Shown here piece by piece: positions 178-11,533 of a stretch of DNA of 64,000 nucleotides. The position numbers were made by a program, and so were the translations under genes. Position 1 is the stretch's first letter; each line of letters starts with the position of its first letter. The notes under the pieces were generated by a model that was not told where the DNA came from, made no database searches, and saw only the letters and a program-made list of their open reading frames with translations. This DNA comes from Candidatus Moanibacter sp. (GTDB lineage: Bacteria > Verrucomicrobiota > Verrucomicrobiia > Opitutales > UBA2987): the NCBI GenBank assembly GCA_965215885.1, contig CBDCEW010000105.1:352001-416000 (forward strand), written 5' to 3'.

Positions 178-1749
178 ATGAGTCCGTTCAGAGAGGACAG
201 AAAGCCTACCATCCTGGTTGTAGACGACGACCCTTCCGGCCTCTCATTCTTTCGGCTAAGTCTGAAGAGGCTCAATTACCGGGTCTTGACTGCTCAAAGT
301 GTGAGGGAGGCGCAGTCGAAGATTCGAGGGGAAGGGATTGATAAGATCGACTGTATCCTTACGGATTTCCGAATGCCGATCCAGTCCGGACTGGATTTGT
401 TGGAATGGGTAATGAGGGAGGATGACAGCCTCTCGACGATAATCGTAACCGCCCAAGGGGAAAAGAACCTGGTGCGCGATTCTCTAAGAGGTGGCGCCAG
501 TGATTTTCTGGAGAAACCTGTAAATCGAAAGACGCTCGCCGAAGCGGTTTCACGGGGAGTGGTGGAGACGGAACGCAGCCGCCAGTTGCGGGCCACTGAT
601 GAGGAGGTCAAGGCAGTGGGGAGAATGGAGCAGATATTTCAGGCTGTTCGAGCACCGGAGATCGCCCCCTTCTTGCGGTATTATTCTCGACCCCTTTATG
701 AAGTTGGAGGCGATTTCATAAATGTGCTGCCAATGGGAGAGAATCGTTGCGTATTTATCATTGGAGACGTCTCAGGACACGATGTAAGAGCAGCATTCGT
801 ATCCGCCTATTTCCAGGGAATGGTGAGGGGTTTGCTTGAACATGAAGCTTCCCTCGAGGAAATCTTCCACAGTTTTAATAGGACACTGAGCGATGAATGG
901 GCACCGACGGACGGAAATGATGGAAGCAGTGGTATCAAGATACAGGTATCCCTGGCAGTATGTGCTGGAATGGTTGATCTCAGGAAAAATAGCATATCGT
1001 TACTTAGCTGCGGATTTCCCCCCTATTTGATTTGTTACAAGGACGGAAGGTGCGCGTTTTCGAAGATCCGAAATCCTCCTTTGGGGTGGTTTGCTTTGGA
1101 CCGTCTTTATGAGGAAGTCCCATTGCTGGAAGGAGGGGACTTCCTCTGTGTCGCTACCGACGGTCTTACGGAATATGCGGCACATTTAGAGATTGATTCA
1201 TGTAGTCTGATTTACAAGCTGTTGGCTCCAGTAGAGCAGACACGTGATCAGTTTGTTATTCATCCTCCCGACGACATACTGGTAATGGGTATTCAATTGG
1301 ATAGAAGTGCGAAAGTGGACGACCTCTTCCAACCGCTAATATACGAGCAGTATTCAGGTGAGGAGATCAGTAATGTGGATCGCCTGCAGGGTTTGTGGCG
1401 GCGCAGTCTTCAATATGCGATATCTGAAGAGCTTGAGGACCGTATCTACGACTTGCTCCTTTGCTGTCGTGAGGCGGTCATTAATGGCCTGGTTTACGGG
1501 TGCGATGAGTCATCCGACAAAATGTGTACTCTTCAGATCACATTTAGTCCTGGCTTGGGTATTGTGCGTGTGAGAGTGGATGATCCGGGCCATGGACACC
1601 GTTTCGATCTTTCTGAGAGGTTGACGAGACTGGATCCGACCGATGGAACACACCTGGGGATGGCCATAATTCAAAACTTGAGCGATACCTTTGAAGTGAA
1701 AAACGACGGAGCGACGGTAGTATTCGAATTCCAATTGCGTAATGAATAG
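178..1749 (+). CDS. Response regulator with REC + SpoIIE/PP2C phosphatase + C-terminal HATPase anti-sigma (RsbW-like) domain
   Basis: ILVVDDD..DFRMP..KP receiver; VGGDF, IGDVSGH, ATDGL, DDIL PP2C motifs; EAVINGLVYG, DDPGHG, HLGMAII kinase boxes. Confidence 0.88.
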   Translation: MSPFREDRKPTILVVDDDPSGLSFFRLSLKRLNYRVLTAQSVREAQSKIRGEGIDKIDCILTDFRMPIQSGLDLLEWVMREDDSLSTIIVTAQGEKNLVRDSLRGGASDFLEKPVNRKTLAEAVSRGVVETERSRQLRATDEEVKAVGRMEQIFQAVRAPEIAPFLRYYSRPLYEVGGDFINVLPMGENRCVFIIGDVSGHDVRAAFVSAYFQGMVRGLLEHEASLEEIFHSFNRTLSDEWAPTDGNDGSSGIKIQVSLAVCAGMVDLRKNSISLLSCGFPPYLICYKDGRCAFSKIRNPPLGWFALDRLYEEVPLLEGGDFLCVATDGLTEYAAHLEIDSCSLIYKLLAPVEQTRDQFVIHPPDDILVMGIQLDRSAKVDDLFQPLIYEQYSGEEISNVDRLQGLWRRSLQYAISEELEDRIYDLLLCCREAVINGLVYGCDESSDKMCTLQITFSPGLGIVRVRVDDPGHGHRFDLSERLTRLDPTDGTHLGMAIIQNLSDTFEVKNDGATVVFEFQLRNE

Positions 1750-1819
1750 ACCCCATCATTTCAAACGGCTTCTTAAGGGCGGGTGATCTCGGGTTTTTGA
1801 AACAATGGGGTAAACTCCG

Positions 1820-2161
1820 ATGGTTACGGGAGAGCTAGACGAAGAGCAACGAACGTTATCCATCAGAGTAAGAGGCGATATTCTAAGCACCAATGCCGAG
1901 GCCTGCCTCTCTTCCGCAAGCGATATACTGCGGAAGGAAAGGGCCAAGGATTGGGAGAAGCTGAGCCTGGATCTCAACTCCGCGCGAATGGTCGACTCAG
2001 TCGGGCTCAATGCGATCATCGGTCTCGTTAAGAATCTGCAGGCACAGAACAAGCCGGTAACGGTGTATATATCGAGCGCCGCGGTTCATCGTGTTTTCCT
2101 TTTTTCACGATTGGATACGATCGTGAATATCGTCTTTAAAGCAAAGCGCCGCCGCCGTTGA
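1820..2161 (+). CDS. STAS-domain anti-sigma factor antagonist
   Basis: 113 aa, LDLNSARMVDSVGLNAI with the phosphorylatable Ser; follows the PP2C/kinase gene. Confidence 0.85.
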   Translation: MVTGELDEEQRTLSIRVRGDILSTNAEACLSSASDILRKERAKDWEKLSLDLNSARMVDSVGLNAIIGLVKNLQAQNKPVTVYISSAAVHRVFLFSRLDTIVNIVFKAKRRRR

Positions 2162-2270
2162 AGGCGGATCCAGAGGTAGACTCTTAGCCCGCTTTCCAAT
2201 GCGTGACCGACCTGTTCTGAATCTGTCTGGGAAATCTGAATTCATCGATCGTTCAGATTATATAAACAGT

Positions 2271-3589
2271 CAGTACTGTCCGGTTATAAGTCAAACAACT
2301 CCAACTGTTTAGGAATGCGGTGTTCATTGAAAGTGTAATCGGTTTCTGTAAGTAGTTCAGTCATAGGAGTTTTCTCAAATAGGGTGAAGCTGAGAATCTG
2401 TAGGATTTTGTGCAAACTGATCTCCAGGCGAAGGCGTTTGCGGATGATGGCGATGAGCACATAGACGCTGACGGCAATCCAGATTTGAGTCTTCACAGCA
2501 TTCTCGGAGGTGCCGAAAAAGCTCTTGATGCGCAAGTGCTGTTTGATCCATTTGAAGAACAATTCGATCTGCCAGCGTAAACGGTAAATCTGGGTGATGA
2601 TTATGGCTGGGAGGGCAAACTGGTTGGTGAGAAACACGAAGCGCTCGGAACTGTCGGGGTCGAGGTAAGTGATACGCCGGAGTCTTTCGGGGTAGGCCTT
2701 GGCAGGATAGAAGCTGACCAGGGCAACGGTCTGGTCCGAACGCAGACCGGTTGATTTGTCGACCTTTTGAGAGTAGAGGCGGCGAAACTGAAAGCCGCGG
2801 CGGGCGCGTGTGACGAAGAAAGAACCGCATTGTGCGATCCGATAGAGGCGCTCGTAATGCAGATAGGCTCGGTCCATTACATAGTAAGCACCGGCCTCGG
2901 GGATGATGAGATCCAGAATGTTTACGTCGTGAACTTTTCCATCGGTAATCTCGATAAAATAAGGGATAGAGCCTCTGAGATCGAGAAGCGTATGGACCTT
3001 CACCGCCCCCTTGTGCTTGCGGAAACGTGCCCACGGGAAGAGTGATAGACATAGATCGATCGTGGTGGAGTCCAGAGCGTAGAGCGTATTGTCCAGGTCG
3101 ATGCCCAGATCCTCGTTTGAATACAAAGGACGAGCCATTGCGATGAGGACCTGTGCAAAGTCGGCGTAGATGCGCCAGTCTCGTTTCTCGTTGGCATCGG
3201 CGAGCGTGCTTTTGGATACTCCGCTTCGAATCCCTGCGTGGTATAGTTTTGGTTGTACTGCCCGCAGGCAGGTTTCGATGTCGCGCAGACTCTCCCGGTA
3301 GGTCAACTCGGCAAAACCCATGCAGAGAAATTGTTCGAAGCAACTGAACTTTTGAACTTTGTAGTCGCCTCCGTAGCGTTGGACGCAACGATGGAACTGA
3401 TGGCGCGGAAGATAATCTATGATTTGAGAAAAAACGAATCGACCTGTATACATGATTTGGACCCTCGAAATTTTTGAGAGTCCACAAGGCTTTTTGCAAT
3501 TTCAAGTCGAAAACAGCAGAAATCATATGTAAAATGTTGGTTATCAATCGATTAACCTGCGTTCCTAGAAAAACAACCGGACAGTAGTG
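2271..3589 (-). mobile_element. Intact IS4-family insertion sequence (1319 bp)
   Basis: Terminal IRs CAGTACTGTCCGGTT (2271-2285) / AACCGGACAGTAGTG (3575-3589), 14/15; perfect 9-bp target duplication ATAAACAGT at 2262-2270 and 3590-3598. Confidence 0.93.
2284..3453 (-). CDS. IS4-family DDE transposase
   Basis: ALDST, MDRAY, YRLRWQIELFFKWIKQ (Y-R-E-K signature). Confidence 0.95.
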   Translation of the reverse strand: MYTGRFVFSQIIDYLPRHQFHRCVQRYGGDYKVQKFSCFEQFLCMGFAELTYRESLRDIETCLRAVQPKLYHAGIRSGVSKSTLADANEKRDWRIYADFAQVLIAMARPLYSNEDLGIDLDNTLYALDSTTIDLCLSLFPWARFRKHKGAVKVHTLLDLRGSIPYFIEITDGKVHDVNILDLIIPEAGAYYVMDRAYLHYERLYRIAQCGSFFVTRARRGFQFRRLYSQKVDKSTGLRSDQTVALVSFYPAKAYPERLRRITYLDPDSSERFVFLTNQFALPAIIITQIYRLRWQIELFFKWIKQHLRIKSFFGTSENAVKTQIWIAVSVYVLIAIIRKRLRLEISLHKILQILSFTLFEKTPMTELLTETDYTFNEHRIPKQLELFDL

Positions 3590-3666
3590 ATAAACAGTCT
3601 GTTCTGAGAGGGAACCTTTTTGCCGACGGGATGGATTGTCGCTCCGCAAAAGAGTTCAGTGGCGGG

Positions 3667-5235
3667 ATGCCGAAAAGACTAGAGAATATCTCGATTGTGG
3701 CTGCCGCAACCGTAGGTTCGCGCGTTTTGGGATTGTTGCGTGACATTCTCCTCTTCGCGCTACTGGGTGCCTCGGCGCTGAATTCCGCCTTCTTAATTGC
3801 CTTTACTCTGCCCAATCTGTTTCGAAGACTGTTAGGCGAAGGCGCGCTTAGTTCGGCCCTGGTTCCGATGTTGTCGGAAGAACTGGAAGAGAATGGAGAG
3901 CAGGGCGCATTTCGCCTGCTTAATCAGGTATTTGCCCGGGTGTTTCTTGTTCTCCTGGTAGTGATAGTTCTGGGTTGCCTGACACTCTTGCTCCTGGGAT
4001 ACATCCCGGGTCTGTCGAATCGTTGGTATCTGTCTTTCGATCTCGGTATCGTTCTTCTTCCCTATGTGATATTTGTTTGTCTGGCAGCTGTGCTCGCGGC
4101 CGGATTAAACGTTTTGCGCCGTTTTGCCATCGCCGCCCTCTCTCAAGTCTGGTTGAATCTGGTAATCCTCTTTGCTTTGGGTTTTCTGGGCTACCTCCTG
4201 GCGGAGGACAATGTGGAGCTTGTCGGTTTTCTTTGTGGCGGAGTCCTGGTGGGTGGGCTATTGCAGCTTCTAATACCGGCTGTGGCACTGCGGAGAAGCG
4301 GATGGAGGCCTTATATAAGTATGGGTGGGTCCGATCGCCTGAAGCAGGTTTGGAAACTGTTTCTGCCCAGTGCGTGGGGGGCGGCGATTCTTCAGGTGAA
4401 CTTCATGGTCTCGCGATTGATTGCGTTGGCTTTGAACGATGAGGCGGTATCCATACTCTATCTCGCCAATCGTCTGGTTGAACTACCTCTCGGTATATTT
4501 GTAATCGCTGTCACAACCGTGGTTTTTCCTGAATTGGCCAAAGTTGCCGCAAAAGGAAATCTCCAAGAGTTCTTCGTTGCGTATCAAGAAGGAGCACGCC
4601 TGATACTGGCGATAACGCTGCCGGCAGGTTTGGGCCTATACCTCTTGAGAGAACCGATCTTAAGCCTTCTTTTCAAGTGGGGATCATTCGGAGTGAATGA
4701 TGTGGCAAACACCGTGCCTGTATTAACCGTTTTCGCAATTGGACTCCCCTTCTACGGTTTGGCGGCCATCGGCACGCGCGGGTTCCATGCCTTGAAGGAC
4801 ACGCGGACACCGTTCCGGTTGGCAGTGGTTAACTTCGTTCTGAATATAGGATTCAGTCTGCTTTTGTTCAGGCCATTTGGCATCGTGGGTTTGGCTGTAG
4901 CAAATGTCTCCGCCATAATGGTACATAGTTTCGCCATGCAGATACTCTTAAGGAGAAGATTTCGGCGGTCCGGAAGGAGCGGGGGATTTGCTCCCCTTCT
5001 GAAGATCTGTGGAGCCGCGATACTGATGGCGCTGGTTACCGATCTGGCGTGGGCGCTAGTGAGTGTCCTGGAACTGACCGGGAGAGCGAAATCTTCGATC
5101 GCCGTGTTTGTAATCGTTCCGTTTGCGGTGATACTGTATTTCCTGACGCTCCGTGCCTTTGGTCTCCGCGAGGTAAATGATTTGCAAGAGATGGTTCTCG
5201 ATTTCATTTCGAAGGTGTTCAGGCCACGTGTTTGA
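3667..5235 (+). CDS. murJ: Lipid II flippase MurJ (MviN)
   Basis: SRVLGLLRD, AFTLPNLFRRLLGEGALSSA, LYLANRLVELPLGIF; multi-TM; start taken at ATG 3667 (ORF open from 3631). Confidence 0.93.
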   Translation: MPKRLENISIVAAATVGSRVLGLLRDILLFALLGASALNSAFLIAFTLPNLFRRLLGEGALSSALVPMLSEELEENGEQGAFRLLNQVFARVFLVLLVVIVLGCLTLLLLGYIPGLSNRWYLSFDLGIVLLPYVIFVCLAAVLAAGLNVLRRFAIAALSQVWLNLVILFALGFLGYLLAEDNVELVGFLCGGVLVGGLLQLLIPAVALRRSGWRPYISMGGSDRLKQVWKLFLPSAWGAAILQVNFMVSRLIALALNDEAVSILYLANRLVELPLGIFVIAVTTVVFPELAKVAAKGNLQEFFVAYQEGARLILAITLPAGLGLYLLREPILSLLFKWGSFGVNDVANTVPVLTVFAIGLPFYGLAAIGTRGFHALKDTRTPFRLAVVNFVLNIGFSLLLFRPFGIVGLAVANVSAIMVHSFAMQILLRRRFRRSGRSGGFAPLLKICGAAILMALVTDLAWALVSVLELTGRAKSSIAVFVIVPFAVILYFLTLRAFGLREVNDLQEMVLDFISKVFRPRV

Positions 5236-5535
5236 ACTTGATCATTCCTGTCCTTCGGCAGGATTCTCCGAAACCCCACCAAGAGGCGGGAAATAGGCCA
5301 AAAAGGGGTTGTTCAATTTCGAAATTATGAAATTCTATAGAAGTTAGGCCGGGATGAGAAATTCTCGGTGGCCAAAGCATCTGCAGATTTGACCGTTATG
5401 AGGGAAATTCGGAGCAGTGTCCTTCTTTTGCCAGAAAATGGAACTTGCAGAAAAGGGCTGAGCCTTGTATTCTCTTATTGGTAAAAAGCTTTGGTGTGCA
5501 GTAGATTACTTAACTTATTACTTATTGGAGCTTAA

Positions 5536-5913
5536 ATGGATACGATTTATTTAGTAGAAGATAACCCGGATAATGCCGATCTGGTAGTGGACATGCTATC
5601 GGGAGACTTCGATGTTACCCATTTTGTGAGCGCGTTGGATCTGTTGGATTTCCTGGAGAAGTCCGAGAGTGTCGCACCTGCCGTATTTATCCTCGATATC
5701 AGCCTGCCCGGAATGGACGGAGTCGACCTTTTAAAGGCACTTAAGGAGGATGAGGAGTATAATAGGATACCCTCTTTGGCTCTGACAGCCCATGCTATGA
5801 AAGACGACAAACGGAGATTTCTGGATGCAGGGTTCGACGCCTATATGAGCAAACCGATAGTCGATGAAGAGGCATTGATAAGCGAAGTGAAGAGGCTTGC
5901 CAATTCGCCTTGA
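5536..5913 (+). CDS. Single-domain response regulator
   Basis: LVEDN, LDISLPGMDG, ALTAHAM, YMSKP. Confidence 0.9.
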   Translation: MDTIYLVEDNPDNADLVVDMLSGDFDVTHFVSALDLLDFLEKSESVAPAVFILDISLPGMDGVDLLKALKEDEEYNRIPSLALTAHAMKDDKRRFLDAGFDAYMSKPIVDEEALISEVKRLANSP

Positions 5914-5916
5914 TCG

Positions 5917-8556
5917 ATGAAATTGAGGAAACTGCTACCGAGATTTACGCTCTGGGCGCTGCCTTTGGTGTTGCTTGTGTTTGTCTTGGCGATTCTCGCC
6001 TTTCCCAAGCAACTATCGAGTGAATTGATTAGTAAAGAGCAGGCGATCTTTACGCTCACCAGCTGCATAGTAGTCGTAATTCTGTTTCAGTTTAACCGCA
6101 CCGACATGCGTTTGAGCAGGCTTTCTCGGGTGGCGAATTCCATTGGCAAGGGGAATTTCAGAGCGCGTTCAAACGACCCTGGGGATGATTCGCTCGGACG
6201 GCTGTCCAACTCCGTGAACGAGATGGCAGAGAGGATCCAGATAGCCATTGATGATTTGGAGGAATCGCAGGAGCAGTTGGAAGTGTCGGGCGCCAAACTT
6301 GAAAAGCAGAACGAGGAGTTGTCTCTGGCAGTGGGGCGGCAGGAGCAGTTTGGCGAATTTCTCTCCCAGATCTCCTCTATCGAAGTAAACGTCATAACGA
6401 ACGCCGCGATCGATTCGCTCACACAACTGACGAATTGTCAGGTAGGCCTTTTCTATCTTTACGATAAGCAGCGGAACGAATTGAACTGCATAACGAAAAG
6501 GAGCGTGGACCAATCTTTTCTGAGGAGTTTTTCGGGTGGCGGGGCGATGGATGGCCTTCCGGGAGAAGTGATCAGCAGGAGGGAGTGGATTTCGCTCGAA
6601 GATATGGATGAGGAAGCGCTGCCGCAGATAAACCTGGGCTTGGCTCGTGCCAAGATTCGCTGTCTCTATGGTATTCCCGTGATCTTTCAGAAGCGTTTAC
6701 TCGGTGTCGTTATTCTGGCCGGACTGAAGAGCATGGATTCGTCGACGAGACAGGTGCTCAAGAACCAGATCGATGCCTTGGCCAATTCCATTTCCAACGC
6801 CATAACCTACAGCTCGGTGCAGAAACAATCGATCCTTCTCGAAGAAGCTAATCAGGATCTCTTAACGGCGCACAAACAGAAGAGCGAATTCGTTGCCAAT
6901 ATGAGCCATGAGTTGCGCACACCCTTAAATTCCATCATCGGCTTTTCCGGTATTTTGCTGAAGAACAGAAAGGACAATCTTAAAGAGGCGGAGCTGAGCC
7001 GGGTGGAAAAGATTAACCGCAACGGTAGACACCTGCTAAGCCTGATCAACGACATCCTCGATCTCTCGAAGATTGAGGCTGGCCGGATGGATTTCGTCTT
7101 TGAAAATACCGATCTTATTATGGTGATCCGAGATGTGGTCGAAATGCTGCAGCCGCAAGCCGAGACAAAAGATATCGGGCTGGATGTCGAGGTCGCAGAT
7201 TCAGATATGATTGTTGCGGAGACCGATGGTCACAAACTCAAGCAGGTATTGATCAATTTAGTTGGGAATGCCATCAAATTTACCAAGACAGGATCGGTTA
7301 CGGTGCGTTGTGGCTGGCTAGATGCTTCTATGGGAAAGATTCGGCTCGAAGTCAACGATACCGGAATCGGGTTGCGCCGAGAGAGTGTCGAACAGATTTT
7401 TCAAGCATTTTCCCAGGCTGACAGCAGCACCTCTCGAGAATACGGGGGGACCGGTCTCGGTCTAACTATCTCGCGTTCCATGATCGAACTCTTGGGGGGC
7501 AGCTTGGAGGTAAGCAGCGAGGGTATCAACAAGGGTTGCACCTTTTCGATGATTCTGCCTGTGAAGAGAGGAGCAGCCGAGGAATCAAAGCGAAAGAAGG
7601 AGCCGCAAGAGAAGCCTGCAAGAGTGGCAGTCGAGGGAGGTGGCGACAAACAGGTAGAAGGAGAGAAGAAAGAGAAGGAAGAGAAAAAAGAGGAGAAAGT
7701 CGCAAAACCGGATTTGGATAGCAAAATGCCGGAGGACGCCGCCGCTAATTCCTTCAGAAAGCTGGTTACCTCTTCGGCGCCTCGACTTTCGACAGTTGAA
7801 CAGGATTCAAAATTGGAGTTGAGAAATGTACTTCCCATCCAGCCGGGAAAACGGATCCTGGTGGTTGATGACGATCCCGATGCGCGCGAGTTTATTATTC
7901 AGTATGTGAAGGAACTCGGTGCCGATTATAAAGAATGTGGTGAACCTCTCCAAGTCGTCGATCTTGTAAAAGAATACCATCCTGACCTGATTACACTCGA
8001 TATCATGATGCCCGAGAGTAACGGTTGGGAAGTACTGGCTAAGCTCAAGTCTGATACCGATGTTTCCGATGTTCCGGTGGTCATAGTGAGCATGGTGGCG
8101 GATAAGACGAAAGCAATATCTCTGGGAGCGGTGGATTCCTTGACGAAACCGGTCTTGCAGGATGATTTTCTGGCCTGCGTTAGACGATCGATCAATTCGG
8201 ATCAAATAGCTAACCGCAAGATTCTAATAGTTGATGACCAGGAAGATTATCAGGAGCTGATGAAGCTGTGGCTGGACGATAGTATTAACGAAATACGAAC
8301 AGCGGGCAACGGACGGGAAGCACTCGACATGCTCGAGACTTTCCGGCCCGATGTGATATTCCTGGATTTAATGATGCCGGTCATGGATGGTCTGAGTTTT
8401 CTCCAGGAATTTCGATCGAATGACAACTACGCGGGAATTCCAGTTATCGTCGTAACGGCCAAAAATCTCTCCCTGGAAGAGAGAAAGTTTCTCGAAACAC
8501 GATCCGAAAAGATACTTCACAAAGGTGAAGAGATATTTAATGAAGTCGTGCGGTAG
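5917..8556 (+). CDS. Membrane hybrid histidine kinase (TM-HAMP-GAF-HisKA-HATPase-REC-REC)
   Basis: Two N-terminal TM segments, HAMP-like region, [29 protein letters not shown], two receiver domains. Confidence 0.92.
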
Positions 8557-8593
8557 AGAGGTGCAGAAAAATCTCCAGGAAGAGCTCTTGCGG

Positions 8594-9694
8594 ATGAACA
8601 TCCTCGTAGTCGACGATTTCGAGGATAATCGTGATCTCATCGTGACCCTCCTGGAGGATCAAGGATACAAGAATTTCCTTGAGGCGGAAGACGGGAAAAA
8701 GGCTGTGGAAATACTGGAGAGCAATGAGGTCATCGATCTCGTTCTACTCGATATCAACATGCCGAAAATGAACGGCTACGAGGTTCTCGATTATATGAAG
8801 AGCCACGATCAATTGCTCCCTATTCCAGTGATAATGGTGACGGCGGTCGATCAACAGGATAGTGTACTGAGGTGTATAGAGAAAGGGGCTGAAGACTATC
8901 TGACGAAACCGGTCGAGGAGACGCTCCTGTGGGCTCGCGTTCATGCCAGTCTCGAACGCAAATATCTGCGCAATAAGGAGCGTGAGTTACTTAGGCAGGT
9001 GCAGTCGGAAAAGAGGAAGACAGAAGAGATCCTCGATCACGTAATTCCGGAGAGCGTTGCCGAGCGTCTGCGTAGAGGTGAAGAGAGTATCGCCGACACG
9101 ATCGATGACACCACGGTGCTTTTCGCCGACCTTGTGGGTTTTACCGCCCTGTCGGCGACCGTAAACGCTGCCTCTTTGGTCCACATGCTCAATTATGTAT
9201 TCAGAGCCTTTGACGAGTTTGGGAAAGAATTGAAGTTGGAAAAGATTAAGACAATTGGTGATTCATATATGATCGTCGGAGGCATCCCACCGAATACCGA
9301 GGATCACGAGATTCGATGTATGCAATTCGCAAACAAAGCTTTAGATCATATCGACGTTTTTAACGAGGATCACCGGATGAATCTTCAACTGAGGGTCGGT
9401 TTACACAGCGGTCCCGTGGTTGCCGGTGTCATCGGCCAGACCCGGTTTACTTACGATTTATGGGGAGAGACGGTAAATCTTGCCAGTCGAATGGAGACGC
9501 TGGGAGTTCCAGGGAGAGTGCAAGTGACCCTTTCGACTTATGAGAGATTGCGGAGTCGTTTTGATTTCGAGCCGCGCGGTAAGATCGAAGTAAAGGGTAA
9601 AGGTGAAATGGAGACTTACCTTTCTCTGGCACCTTCTTTAACCGAAAGCGCCAGGATGAGTCTACAAGAACCGGAGGCTACCGCTTCCCATTAG
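8594..9694 (+). CDS. Response-regulator-fused class III adenylate cyclase
   Basis: REC domain then LFADLVGFT, EKIKTIGDSYM, YDLWGETVNLASRME (K/D pair typical of adenylyl specificity); GTG 8561 is an alternative start. Confidence 0.9.
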   Translation: MNILVVDDFEDNRDLIVTLLEDQGYKNFLEAEDGKKAVEILESNEVIDLVLLDINMPKMNGYEVLDYMKSHDQLLPIPVIMVTAVDQQDSVLRCIEKGAEDYLTKPVEETLLWARVHASLERKYLRNKERELLRQVQSEKRKTEEILDHVIPESVAERLRRGEESIADTIDDTTVLFADLVGFTALSATVNAASLVHMLNYVFRAFDEFGKELKLEKIKTIGDSYMIVGGIPPNTEDHEIRCMQFANKALDHIDVFNEDHRMNLQLRVGLHSGPVVAGVIGQTRFTYDLWGETVNLASRMETLGVPGRVQVTLSTYERLRSRFDFEPRGKIEVKGKGEMETYLSLAPSLTESARMSLQEPEATASH

Positions 9695-9723
9695 TCCGGA
9701 AATCTCCGAGATTTTCGGACTAA
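9691..9723. terminator. Palindrome between convergent genes, probable bidirectional terminator
   Basis: TTAGTCCGGAAATCTC-C-GAGATTTTCGGACTAA; arms include both TAG stop codons. Confidence 0.6.
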
Positions 9724-10841
9724 CTAATAATTCTTTGCCATTGTCGCTCTTTCGCTTGATTGGCGGCTTTCAGTGCACCATTGGCGACGTGCTGCTTATA
9801 ATTCTCTCCGATGGAGCGCACCTTCGGTTCAGCAAAGCCGTCATTTTCAAGCAATCTCTGGAGAGTTGGAGCGATATCCCGAATACGGCTGCCACCTCCG
9901 GTCAGAACAATGTTCTGAAGCAGTTCCGATATGCTGTCGCCGTCGGCTTTGCCAATTAGATTTCTTACCTTCTCAAAAATGCGATTGAGCAGCTCATTGC
10001 AGGCAGTTGCGATTTGCTCACCAACTTGGAGTCTACGAGATTTTCCTCCTATAATCACATCTACCTCGATCGTGGGATCCGCTTCTCCGACGTAAGAGAA
10101 TTCCTCTTTGAGTTCCCGGACACGGTTGAGTGACAGCTGGCAGTCCGGGTAGGTCTGTAGGATTTCCTTCAAAAGGAGCTCATCCACCGCGTCGCCGGCG
10201 AAATCAATGCTGACTTGATCATCAGTGAGGGGAAAGTACCCCTGAACGAGACAGATATCGGCACTTCCCGCGCCGATGTCGATAAACATGGAGTTTCGGA
10301 CCGGGTCGACGTAATCCGGATCGTCCAGTCGGGACTCATCCCGGTAGCCGAGTGCCGCCAAAAAGGGTTCGGGAATAAGGATCACTTTGTCGAACACGCC
10401 CGTAACTGCAGTTCTCACGTTTTCACGGGAAGCGCTATCGGCCTGAGCGGGTACCCCGACGACCGCACGAATTTCAGATCCGTTCTCGATATTCAACCTC
10501 GATCTGAGGTGCCGGGCAAAATCGCGAGCCGGTTTCAAGTTCTGTATGATCCCTTTTCGGAGCGGCCGCTCCATATTGAGGTGTAGGCGCTGTTCAAGGG
10601 CTTCGATTCCAAAGAGAGTCTTATCGCCCCTCGGAAGGATTCCATCCAGGATGCCTTCATTGGCGTAACCGACAATGGTGGGAACGATTGTGTCGACCTC
10701 CGTCTGCTCGGAACCGCGAAATGATGCCTGGAGGCACGAGGTGTTGGTTCCCAAGTCGAGTCCGACCATCACGGGACGTTGCTGAGTGAGTTCCGAATTA
10801 GAACTCGAGATGGGTTTTGTGGTTTTGACTTTCTTAGACAT
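9720..10841 (-). CDS. MamK-like bacterial actin (MreB/MamK superfamily)
   Basis: GLDLGTNTS (phosphate 1), EPFLAALG, IDIGAGSADI (phosphate 2), LQNIVLTGGGSRIR (adenosine); VGY, AVVGVPA, DQVSIDFAGDAVDE and KEEFSYVG recall MamK more than MreB. Confidence 0.85.
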   Translation of the reverse strand: MSKKVKTTKPISSSNSELTQQRPVMVGLDLGTNTSCLQASFRGSEQTEVDTIVPTIVGYANEGILDGILPRGDKTLFGIEALEQRLHLNMERPLRKGIIQNLKPARDFARHLRSRLNIENGSEIRAVVGVPAQADSASRENVRTAVTGVFDKVILIPEPFLAALGYRDESRLDDPDYVDPVRNSMFIDIGAGSADICLVQGYFPLTDDQVSIDFAGDAVDELLLKEILQTYPDCQLSLNRVRELKEEFSYVGEADPTIEVDVIIGGKSRRLQVGEQIATACNELLNRIFEKVRNLIGKADGDSISELLQNIVLTGGGSRIRDIAPTLQRLLENDGFAEPKVRSIGENYKQHVANGALKAANQAKERQWQRIIS

Positions 10842-10861
10842 GGTGCATCTGAGATTTCGGG

Positions 10862-11404
10862 TTAGGTAAATGCTCGCAGAGGGCTTAGAGATCGTGCCAT
10901 CGGTTCGAATTCTTCCGCATTGAGCGCATCTATCATATCTCCGATATTGTGTAGAGGAATCTTCCTGCGTGTTGTAAAGAGTGGCATATGGTTTGTTTCT
11001 CGCGAGTCATCATCGATAGGCAATGCGGAGTCTGATTCTCTCTTTACGGCCGGATTACTGATTTCATTAATGGCTTTATTTGATTCGGTCGGATAGGGCA
11101 GATCATTCGTGTAATTCGTCATTTTCGGCAGCACATGTTTTGCCACGTGGTCGATCACTATTTGTTGGATTTTTTCTGCCTCGGTTATCTTGCGATATTC
11201 ATCAGAAATCATAGCGCGTACTCTAAGTTTACATTCCTCAGTACTCATTTCTGTAATATCGGCCCATTCGGAAATGAGGTTGGGTAGCTCATCTCGCATC
11301 AAAATACGCATCGCATCGCTTTCGCCCTCCCTGTAATGTATACAGGCTTCACGATAATGCGAAACGATCTCAAACCATAATATCTCAACCTTTTCAGTTT
11401 GCAT
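10862..11404 (-). CDS. Hypothetical protein, 20 bp upstream of and co-oriented with the MamK-like actin
   Basis: 180-aa ORF; helical-looking N-terminus, polar linker, C-terminal RRKIPLHNIGDMIDAL segment; no family recognised. Confidence 0.7.
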   Translation of the reverse strand: MQTEKVEILWFEIVSHYREACIHYREGESDAMRILMRDELPNLISEWADITEMSTEECKLRVRAMISDEYRKITEAEKIQQIVIDHVAKHVLPKMTNYTNDLPYPTESNKAINEISNPAVKRESDSALPIDDDSRETNHMPLFTTRRKIPLHNIGDMIDALNAEEFEPMARSLSPLRAFT

Positions 11405-11517
11405 GTCTTACGTTGGTGTTTGGTTAGAAGGTAATCCGCGAATAGCCCTGCTACCAACAGTTTCACGGAAAAATTCGACAGCCGTTCGAAATCCACGCGC
11501 TTGGAGGACAGACTTGA

Positions 11518-11533
11518 AGCAACTAGTGTACCA
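11518..11533 (-). promoter_or_regulatory. Candidate sigma-54 promoter for the hypothetical + MamK-like operon
   Basis: Minus strand TGGTACACTAGTTGCT, 1 mismatch to TGGCAC-N5-TTGCW, ~114 bp upstream of ATG 11404. Confidence 0.6.

Follow-up and report, generated by a model that had tools for sequence, protein, structure and literature searches.

Which actin family a filament gene belongs to, and what its small upstream neighbour contributes, are the questions raised by a two-gene unit in the genome of Candidatus Moanibacter sp. (Verrucomicrobiota; Opitutales). The unit lies in the window, by which we mean the whole stretch of 64,000 nucleotides that was analysed (GCA_965215885.1, contig CBDCEW010000105.1, positions 352,001 to 416,000). 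A first-pass annotation, made from the sequence alone, had described a MamK-like actin with a partner gene and its own sigma-54-type promoter, and had proposed a filament and adaptor system for some other cargo. The actin family that concerns us here is BeeR, first described in 2025. The protein of Opitutus terrae assembles into an ATP-dependent rigid three-stranded tube, the first three-stranded tubular actin reported, and its function was stated as unknown by its authors, whose paper describes no partner gene, neighbour gene, operon or regulation (PMC11929497). Expression of BeeR is unstudied according to the part of the preprint available (10.1101/2023.11.07.565980), and no later work on BeeR came up in a literature search whose coverage omits most subscription papers and bioRxiv supplements. 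BeeR itself is thus already known; the partner, the loss of its motif, the sigma-54 control and the flagellar tendency considered below have no description in the BeeR literature found.

The actin gene and its relatives

By predicted fold and by sequence relationship, the actin of the window is placed in the BeeR family. The NCBIfam BeeR model NF053558 matches it with 526.6 bits (E 2.6e-158, positions 1-349 of 349), 3.4 bits under the cut-off of 530; full-length BeeR matches across the order score from 471 to 614 bits, and otherwise only fragments come near that range. The MamK model NF040964 gives 229.9 bits against a cut-off of 400, the MreB models give 55-59 bits against cut-offs of 293-366 (TIGR00904, 55.3 against 365.75), and Pfam MreB_Mbl gives 78.6 bits. 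The best match in a sequence search of the PDB is 8R2N (E 4.6e-121), followed by MamK (1e-40). Foldseek with the AlphaFold model likewise ranks 8R2N at the top (TM 0.88/0.93, rmsd 2.2 Å, 52% identity), the values against MamK being TM 0.78/0.89 and 31% identity. The earlier description as MamK-like therefore stands in so far as MamK is the nearest older family, and gives way in that the protein scores far higher with the BeeR model. The same annotation was right that it is neither an MreB nor a magnetosome gene. In the genome (90% complete), two magnetosome markers were searched: the best MamB match reaches 56.2 bits against a cut-off of 350 and MamI has no match, although the MamI control matched nowhere. 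A separate mreB-mreC-mreD cluster, for which a search had been suggested, is present on another contig (mreB 499.4 bits; mreD weak, 22.1 bits, below its cut-off of 24), and no mre or mam gene was found among the eight neighbouring ORFs scanned beside beeR, as had been noted. Three outcomes had been named as contrary to the first-pass reading, namely an actin inside MreB, a full mam cluster and a partner that is not conserved, and none of them came true.

All the nucleotide-binding motifs described for this 373-aa protein are there, with residues D29, G31, T32, E158, D188, G190, K245, E246 and G315-G317 invariant in 60/60 aligned rows. The N-terminal tail of about 22 residues is predicted to be disordered (pLDDT 44-51 over residues 1-20); across the 67 loci of the first set defined below, 21-68 residues separate the start from the phosphate-1 glycine, the published extension being 30-50 residues. 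Cross-strand contacts kept or similar (O. terrae/window) are E153/E140, N246/D233, I277/I264, L284/L271, Q at 380/Q367 and L385/I372; those at E149, R157, R242, T307 and Q310 are changed in the window's protein and are variable among the 60 rows too. At the positions that PMC11929497 gives as Arg252 and Asn380, the 8R2N sequence has His and Gln. BeeR residues 167-181 (window 10300-10345) form a segment with no counterpart in the aligned MamK, in which R167, Y177, D179, P180 and V181 are invariant. By analogy with the O. terrae protein, the window's BeeR would be expected to assemble into a three-stranded tube.

Table 1. Features of the beeR unit, in window positions
Feature	Position	Strand	Basis
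beeR, BeeR-family actin homologue, 373 aa	9720..10841	-	NF053558 and 8R2N matches
BeeR partner gene, conserved family without a name, 180 aa	10862..11404	-	Homologues directly upstream of beeR
Partner N-terminal three-helix domain, residues 6-95	11120..11389	-	Family alignment and AlphaFold
Partner C-terminal acidic amphipathic motif, residues 147-162, core I154-L161; proposed BeeR-docking helix	10919..10966	-	Motif pattern, predicted helix
Sigma-54-type -24/-12 site TGGTAC-ACTAG-TTGCT	11518..11533	-	One mismatch to TGGCAC-N5-TTGCW
16-bp hairpin between the convergent ends of beeR and an adenylate-cyclase gene	9691..9723	.	Inverted repeat, 94% complementary, 1-nt loop

Both ORFs of the unit (Table 1) lie on the (-) strand with a gap of 20 bp, as first described. 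On its convergent side beeR is flanked by a response-regulator/adenylate cyclase gene, and upstream of the partner lie tRNA-Arg, hpf and a pseudouridine synthase gene. Judged from its sequence and position, the hairpin is a likely terminator of the beeR unit; a terminator scan of the window did not report it. In four metatranscriptome runs both genes were touched by short contig pieces of low depth, and no piece bridged the junction (31 letters each side). The cyclase gene ends a (+) run of signalling genes (178-9694: receiver-phosphatase-ATPase, STAS protein, hybrid histidine kinase, receiver-adenylate cyclase) that is convergent with beeR, and a cyclase/kinase-like gene adjoins beeR again in some relatives. 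A transposase gene with DUF4372 and DDE_Tnp_1 (2284-3453, -) lies between an anti-sigma-antagonist gene and murJ, and has a same-start copy on contig C103.

BeeR was found in 25/401 genomes of a phylum sample, all within the window's order, and in 76/401 genomes of an order sample; further matches occur in Limisphaerales and Pedosphaera, so that the family is patchy, not phylum-wide. No BeeR relatives were found in viral contigs. Two sets of loci were compared. The first holds 66 of the 77 other BeeR matches from the order sample, 67 loci with the window; the second holds the best 80 of 406 matches, 73 loci after removal of 7 duplicates. These 406 came from an alignment-based scan of genomes, a scan with a single BeeR sequence pattern having given 0 matches. 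The BeeR trees contain no MamK sequences; their root is the MreB of the window's genome. In two genomes beeR and its partner occur twice (L023/L027 and L008/L028); the two pairs belong to different BeeR subclades and only one of them has a sigma-54 site, hinting at two functional subtypes. Two loci labelled as unrelated species (L101, L110) group by their genes with the BeeR of Verrucomicrobiota and are likely mislabelled bins.

A partner gene inherited with beeR

The ORF upstream of the actin proved to be conserved beside its homologues, as the first-pass reading required. An iterated profile started from the window's partner and run over 7801 open segments matched only directly upstream of beeR on the same strand, at 56/66 loci of the first set; with five further upstream ORFs picked by their C-terminal motif, the count is 61/66; of the other five loci, a contig end truncates one and an unrelated gene occupies the upstream position in four. 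In the second set (best 80 of 406 BeeR matches) the partner precedes beeR at 57/73 loci, and no other neighbour is common to beeR loci across families. When the 401 genomes of the order sample were searched with a profile of the partner's N-domain, 76 matched, or 75 after one weak match in an unrelated ORF was dropped; 76 have BeeR, and 70 have both genes. Six genomes have BeeR only (two contig ends, one divergent partner, and three, G366, G408 and G416, with no partner found), and five have the partner only (one contig end, four with only MreB-level actin matches). In one genome both genes are present and unlinked. The partner is, then, a conserved family inherited with BeeR.

Comparison with Pfam, NCBIfam and the PDB gave this family no meaningful relative (one stray NCBIfam match; 0 matches at E 1 in a PDB profile search), and its named members in databases are called 'hypothetical protein'. 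A single-sequence search recovered only the query among 18 candidates, the family surfacing through neighbourhoods and a profile that has 557 representatives at E 0.001. A whole-partner profile found 0/5 in five genomes, yet one of these holds a known divergent copy, so this blank is uninformative; a search of the ESM Atlas with two partners gave no usable match.

The layout first read as helical domain, polar linker and short C-terminal motif agrees with the family alignment and with the AlphaFold model, which predicts helices at 2-25, 29-50 and 55-100 (pLDDT 89-98), then a linker of low confidence and a helix at 154-172. Linker length starts at tens of residues and reaches about 450 where a helical insert is present. 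This repetitive insert characterizes one family (L026, L035, L040; P0051, P0075), has apolipoprotein-like Pfam matches, and leaves the N-domain and C-motif in place. Two long matches inspected as candidate partner-BeeR fusions (534 and 560 aa) are such helical-insert forms, and one 127-aa database protein (P0150), in which the partner N-domain is fused to the final ~40 residues of BeeR, is likely a deletion or mis-assembly. A fold search with the N-domain returned generic helical bundles only, the best at Z 8.4, below the level that is meaningful for helical bundles. Homology to a FliT-like chaperone found no support: FliT chains scored Z 6.3-6.6 among the generic bundles, hhalign against E. 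coli FliT gave a probability of 0.2%, and FliT was found in 0/5 flagellated genomes. A search for FliT homologues recovered close enterobacterial copies only. Homology to FliS likewise had no support.

The C-terminal motif has the core [ILV]xx[MLIFV][IL][DEQ]x[MLVIA] and a median net charge of -3, and occurs in 116/119 partners, five of which had been chosen by the motif. Among second-set partners (best 80 of 406 BeeR matches) it is found in 54/57, against 3% in shuffles. The motif is absent from 4/4 partner copies in genomes that lack BeeR, neither the ORF nor other downstream frames containing it, and the N-domain is retained. All four genomes have FlhA; the four copies represent two lineages only (one genus three times, and one other genome). 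The unlinked partner copy ends in a degenerate motif whose score lies within the null range. Because the copies without BeeR keep the N-domain and lose the motif, this pattern, from two lineages, is the best sign that the C-motif may serve BeeR and the N-domain something else.

A sigma-54-type site and flagellated hosts

The TGGTAC-N5-TTGCT element that had been pointed out upstream of the partner is, as a sequence feature, real and conserved in relatives far above chance. It lies 129 nt before the partner ATG and is weak when taken by itself, being the one match in the window, where 0.06 are expected and 6/100 shuffles reach one. Counting sites with at most two mismatches within 300 nt upstream, we found 11/67 in the first set against 2.0 expected, and 36/55 at partner loci of the second set (best 80 of 406) against 2.0 expected; in relatives the site mostly lies 28-72 nt before the start. 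Eight of the 11 first-set sites belong to the window's 10-member BeeR subclade (support 0.997), elsewhere 3/57 loci have one, and many lineages keep the pair without it. RpoN is present in the window's genome, where a search allowing up to one mismatch gives 106 matches, 14 of them in intergenic sequence ahead of an ORF; the eight of these 14 that were scanned include glnA, pspA, dnaK, a TorF porin and a FliA-type sigma factor. The same site precedes flgB in 6/7 genomes whose flagellar regions were compared, the window's included, and glnA, pspA and flgB were recovered as positive controls of the search. Flagellar clusters also contain an ORF of 76-79 aa, hydrophobic and without annotation (L177:19598-19825, L184:3356-3592), with its own sigma-54-type site in two genomes.

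In the second set (best 80 of 406) the 16 BeeRs that lack a partner all fall into a single clade (support 1.0), with a site in 0/16; 14 of their genomes have no partner match at all and the other two carry a partner beside a second beeR. FlhA was found in 34/36 partner genomes (36 of the 57 having been submitted) and in 0/14 partnerless genomes, where FliG is likewise 0/14. Since the 16 partnerless BeeRs form one clade, the 0/14 for FlhA may be a single event. In the order sample an FlhA-like match accompanies BeeR in 67/76 genomes and the partner in 65/75, although kin are not independent.

Other genomes depart from this association. Eight genomes that are 97-100% complete hold the pair without FlhA and without FliG, the three flagellated genomes G366, G408 and G416 have BeeR with no partner found, and genus g20 is reversed, with two BeeR genomes lacking FlhA and two FlhA genomes lacking BeeR. 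A further 115 genomes with an FlhA-like match have neither BeeR nor partner; many of these are small and their sub-cut-off matches are probably type III secretion genes. Many genomes of 0.7-1.4 Mb in the order sample have sub-cut-off FlhA-like genes (about 650 bits), which are probably export gates of reduced symbionts. We therefore regard the tie between pair and flagella as a tendency; the eight genomes without FlhA and FliG count against a strict role, and a tendency fits an accessory one.

In the flagellar cluster of the window's own genome (L172, G000:C88:80000-99852), flhA is broken up into two ORFs that overlap, and an insertion of about 2.7 kb without annotation follows fliH-fliI-fliJ. 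Flagellin and CheW were not found in the 90% assembly, and the motility system is possibly decaying. Chemosensory arrays were rejected as an obligatory cargo, CheW not being found in several flagellated pair genomes, the window's included; CheW also tracks the pair less well than FlhA does.

Binding, alternatives and known systems

The co-folding that the first-pass annotation had called for was run, and it offers a slight indication that the partner binds BeeR. The window pair scored 0.50 (runs 0.50, 0.83 and 0.38) against 0.00 for the best of three controls, and no interface was returned; the runs share at least 35% of contacts, with a partner pLDDT of at least 58. The mark applied is reached by 116/157 solved and 2/215 mismatched pairs, and at scores of up to 0.60 by 18 solved pairs and both mismatched ones. 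On the BeeR side, K358, R143 and H87 differ in 16/16 BeeRs of the partnerless clade (second set, best 80 of 406). K358 and R143 were dropped as partner-linked residues, being kept in three other partnerless BeeRs, and the change in all three positions is for this reason taken as one event only.

The explanation that we favour, with about even prospects of being right, is that the two genes would encode a filament-forming BeeR together with a binding partner dedicated to it, an adaptor or regulator that docks by its C-terminal helix, and that in the window's clade they are expressed as part of the flagellar programme. The C-terminal helices of ParR and arcadin-2 bind an actin groove, as set out in the available part of PMC5173319. 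By analogy, the helix of the partner probably docks on BeeR, the groove between subdomains IA and IIA that ParR and arcadin-2 use being the likeliest place. Less assured, at a little under even odds, is that the N-domain would bind something else or oligomerise, so that the partner could tether the filament or track its end. More tentatively, the other end might belong to the programme of flagellated cells, the unit helping, for example, to anchor or position the base of the flagellum, or to stiffen the cell as it swims, in an accessory, not essential, role. The adaptor-and-cargo step is one that we infer, the support for binding being indirect and, from the co-fold model, weak. At its most specific, and here we are speculating, the partner would be the first BeeR-binding adaptor, its C-helix gripping the tube and its N-domain gripping the flagellar base or a polar landmark, and a tubular track under sigma-54 control would place or brace the Verrucomicrobiota flagellum. 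The literature found ascribes no such role in placing or bracing a flagellum to any dedicated bacterial actin.

The strongest competitor, though a rather improbable one, holds that the partner binds BeeR only as an assembly regulator (a sequesterer, capper, depolymeriser or nucleator) and carries no cargo, much as arcadin-2 serves crenactin, which it depolymerises with a C-terminal helix of 17 residues that sits in the groove (available part of PMC5173319). BeeR alone shows no depolymerisation in about 12 h in the part of the preprint available (10.1101/2023.11.07.565980), so that a turnover factor is wanted, and the same C-motif and co-inheritance data would fit such a factor. Against it stand the retention of the N-domain where BeeR and motif are both lost and a linker of tens to about 450 residues, a range better matched to a spacer than to pure inhibition.

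Less likely again is that the two genes are merely co-transcribed in a sigma-54 programme of stress or nitrogen starvation, the flagellar correlation reflecting shared ancestry and the proteins having no need to touch. The sites before glnA, pspA and dnaK are in keeping with this, as are the eight pair genomes without FlhA and FliG, the reversal in genus g20 and the single clade of partnerless BeeRs. It is harder to reconcile with a C-motif lost specifically where BeeR is absent, with a co-fold score above all three controls, and with the lineages that retain the pair and have no sigma-54 site.

ParM and ParR are encoded as an actin and a small adjacent adaptor with a C-terminal helix. The beeR unit shares this layout, but a DNA segregation module like ParMRC or AlfAB, with the partner binding a centromere, is very improbable: no DNA-binding family stands among the 25 listed of 27 Pfam families for 60 partner members, the fold search returned only generic bundles, the upstream sequence has only chance-like repeats and no repeat array, the flanks are housekeeping genes, and viral contigs yielded no BeeR relative. 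An ordinary MamK with a MamJ-like magnetosome adaptor is almost certainly wrong, since MamK, although the next-best family by score, TM value and identity, falls far below its cut-off and the two markers searched gave only MamB at 56 bits against 350 and no MamI.

If the preferred reading of a filament with a dedicated partner is followed, the function of BeeR becomes a testable question, with a short candidate helix, natural variants that have lost the motif, a sigma-54 site like that of flgB and a co-loss with the flagellum in one clade. The flagellated hosts of the partner are a lead to that function. Should the C-helix control tube assembly, the regulation through the actin groove that ParR and arcadin-2 represent would extend to a new filament architecture.

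Among known systems, the nearest is BeeR of Opitutus terrae (8R2N, NF053558), with which the window's protein shares about 50% identity over the actin core, the same BeeR-specific segments and, by prediction, a disordered tail. Both hosts are Verrucomicrobiota without magnetosome markers, and the window belongs to the same order as the genome of locus L003, whose BeeR is identical to the 8R2N chain and has a partner gene 47 bp upstream. Unlike the O. terrae protein, that of the window falls in another well-supported subclade, the one with the sigma-54 site, and has a shorter tail (26 against 39 residues to the phosphate-1 glycine) and different residues at several polar cross-strand positions. 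With MreB it has only the actin fold in common, its scores lying far under the cut-offs and a canonical mreBCD being separate in the genome. MamJ is an adaptor with an acidic low-complexity region whose gene is adjacent to that of MamK. The beeR unit resembles MamK-MamJ in having the nearest actin family and an adjacent adaptor-like gene, and differs in its 31% identity, its score below the MamK cut-off and the lack of magnetosome markers found. As in crenactin-arcadin-2 and ParM-ParR (available part of PMC5173319), the partner is gene-linked and has a C-terminal helix, here proposed for the hydrophobic groove of the actin; unlike in those systems, no sequence relationship was shown, and no DNA-binding domain or centromere was found. 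By analogy, the unit would work like ParM-ParR, MamK-MamJ and crenactin-arcadin-2, and is a member of none of them.
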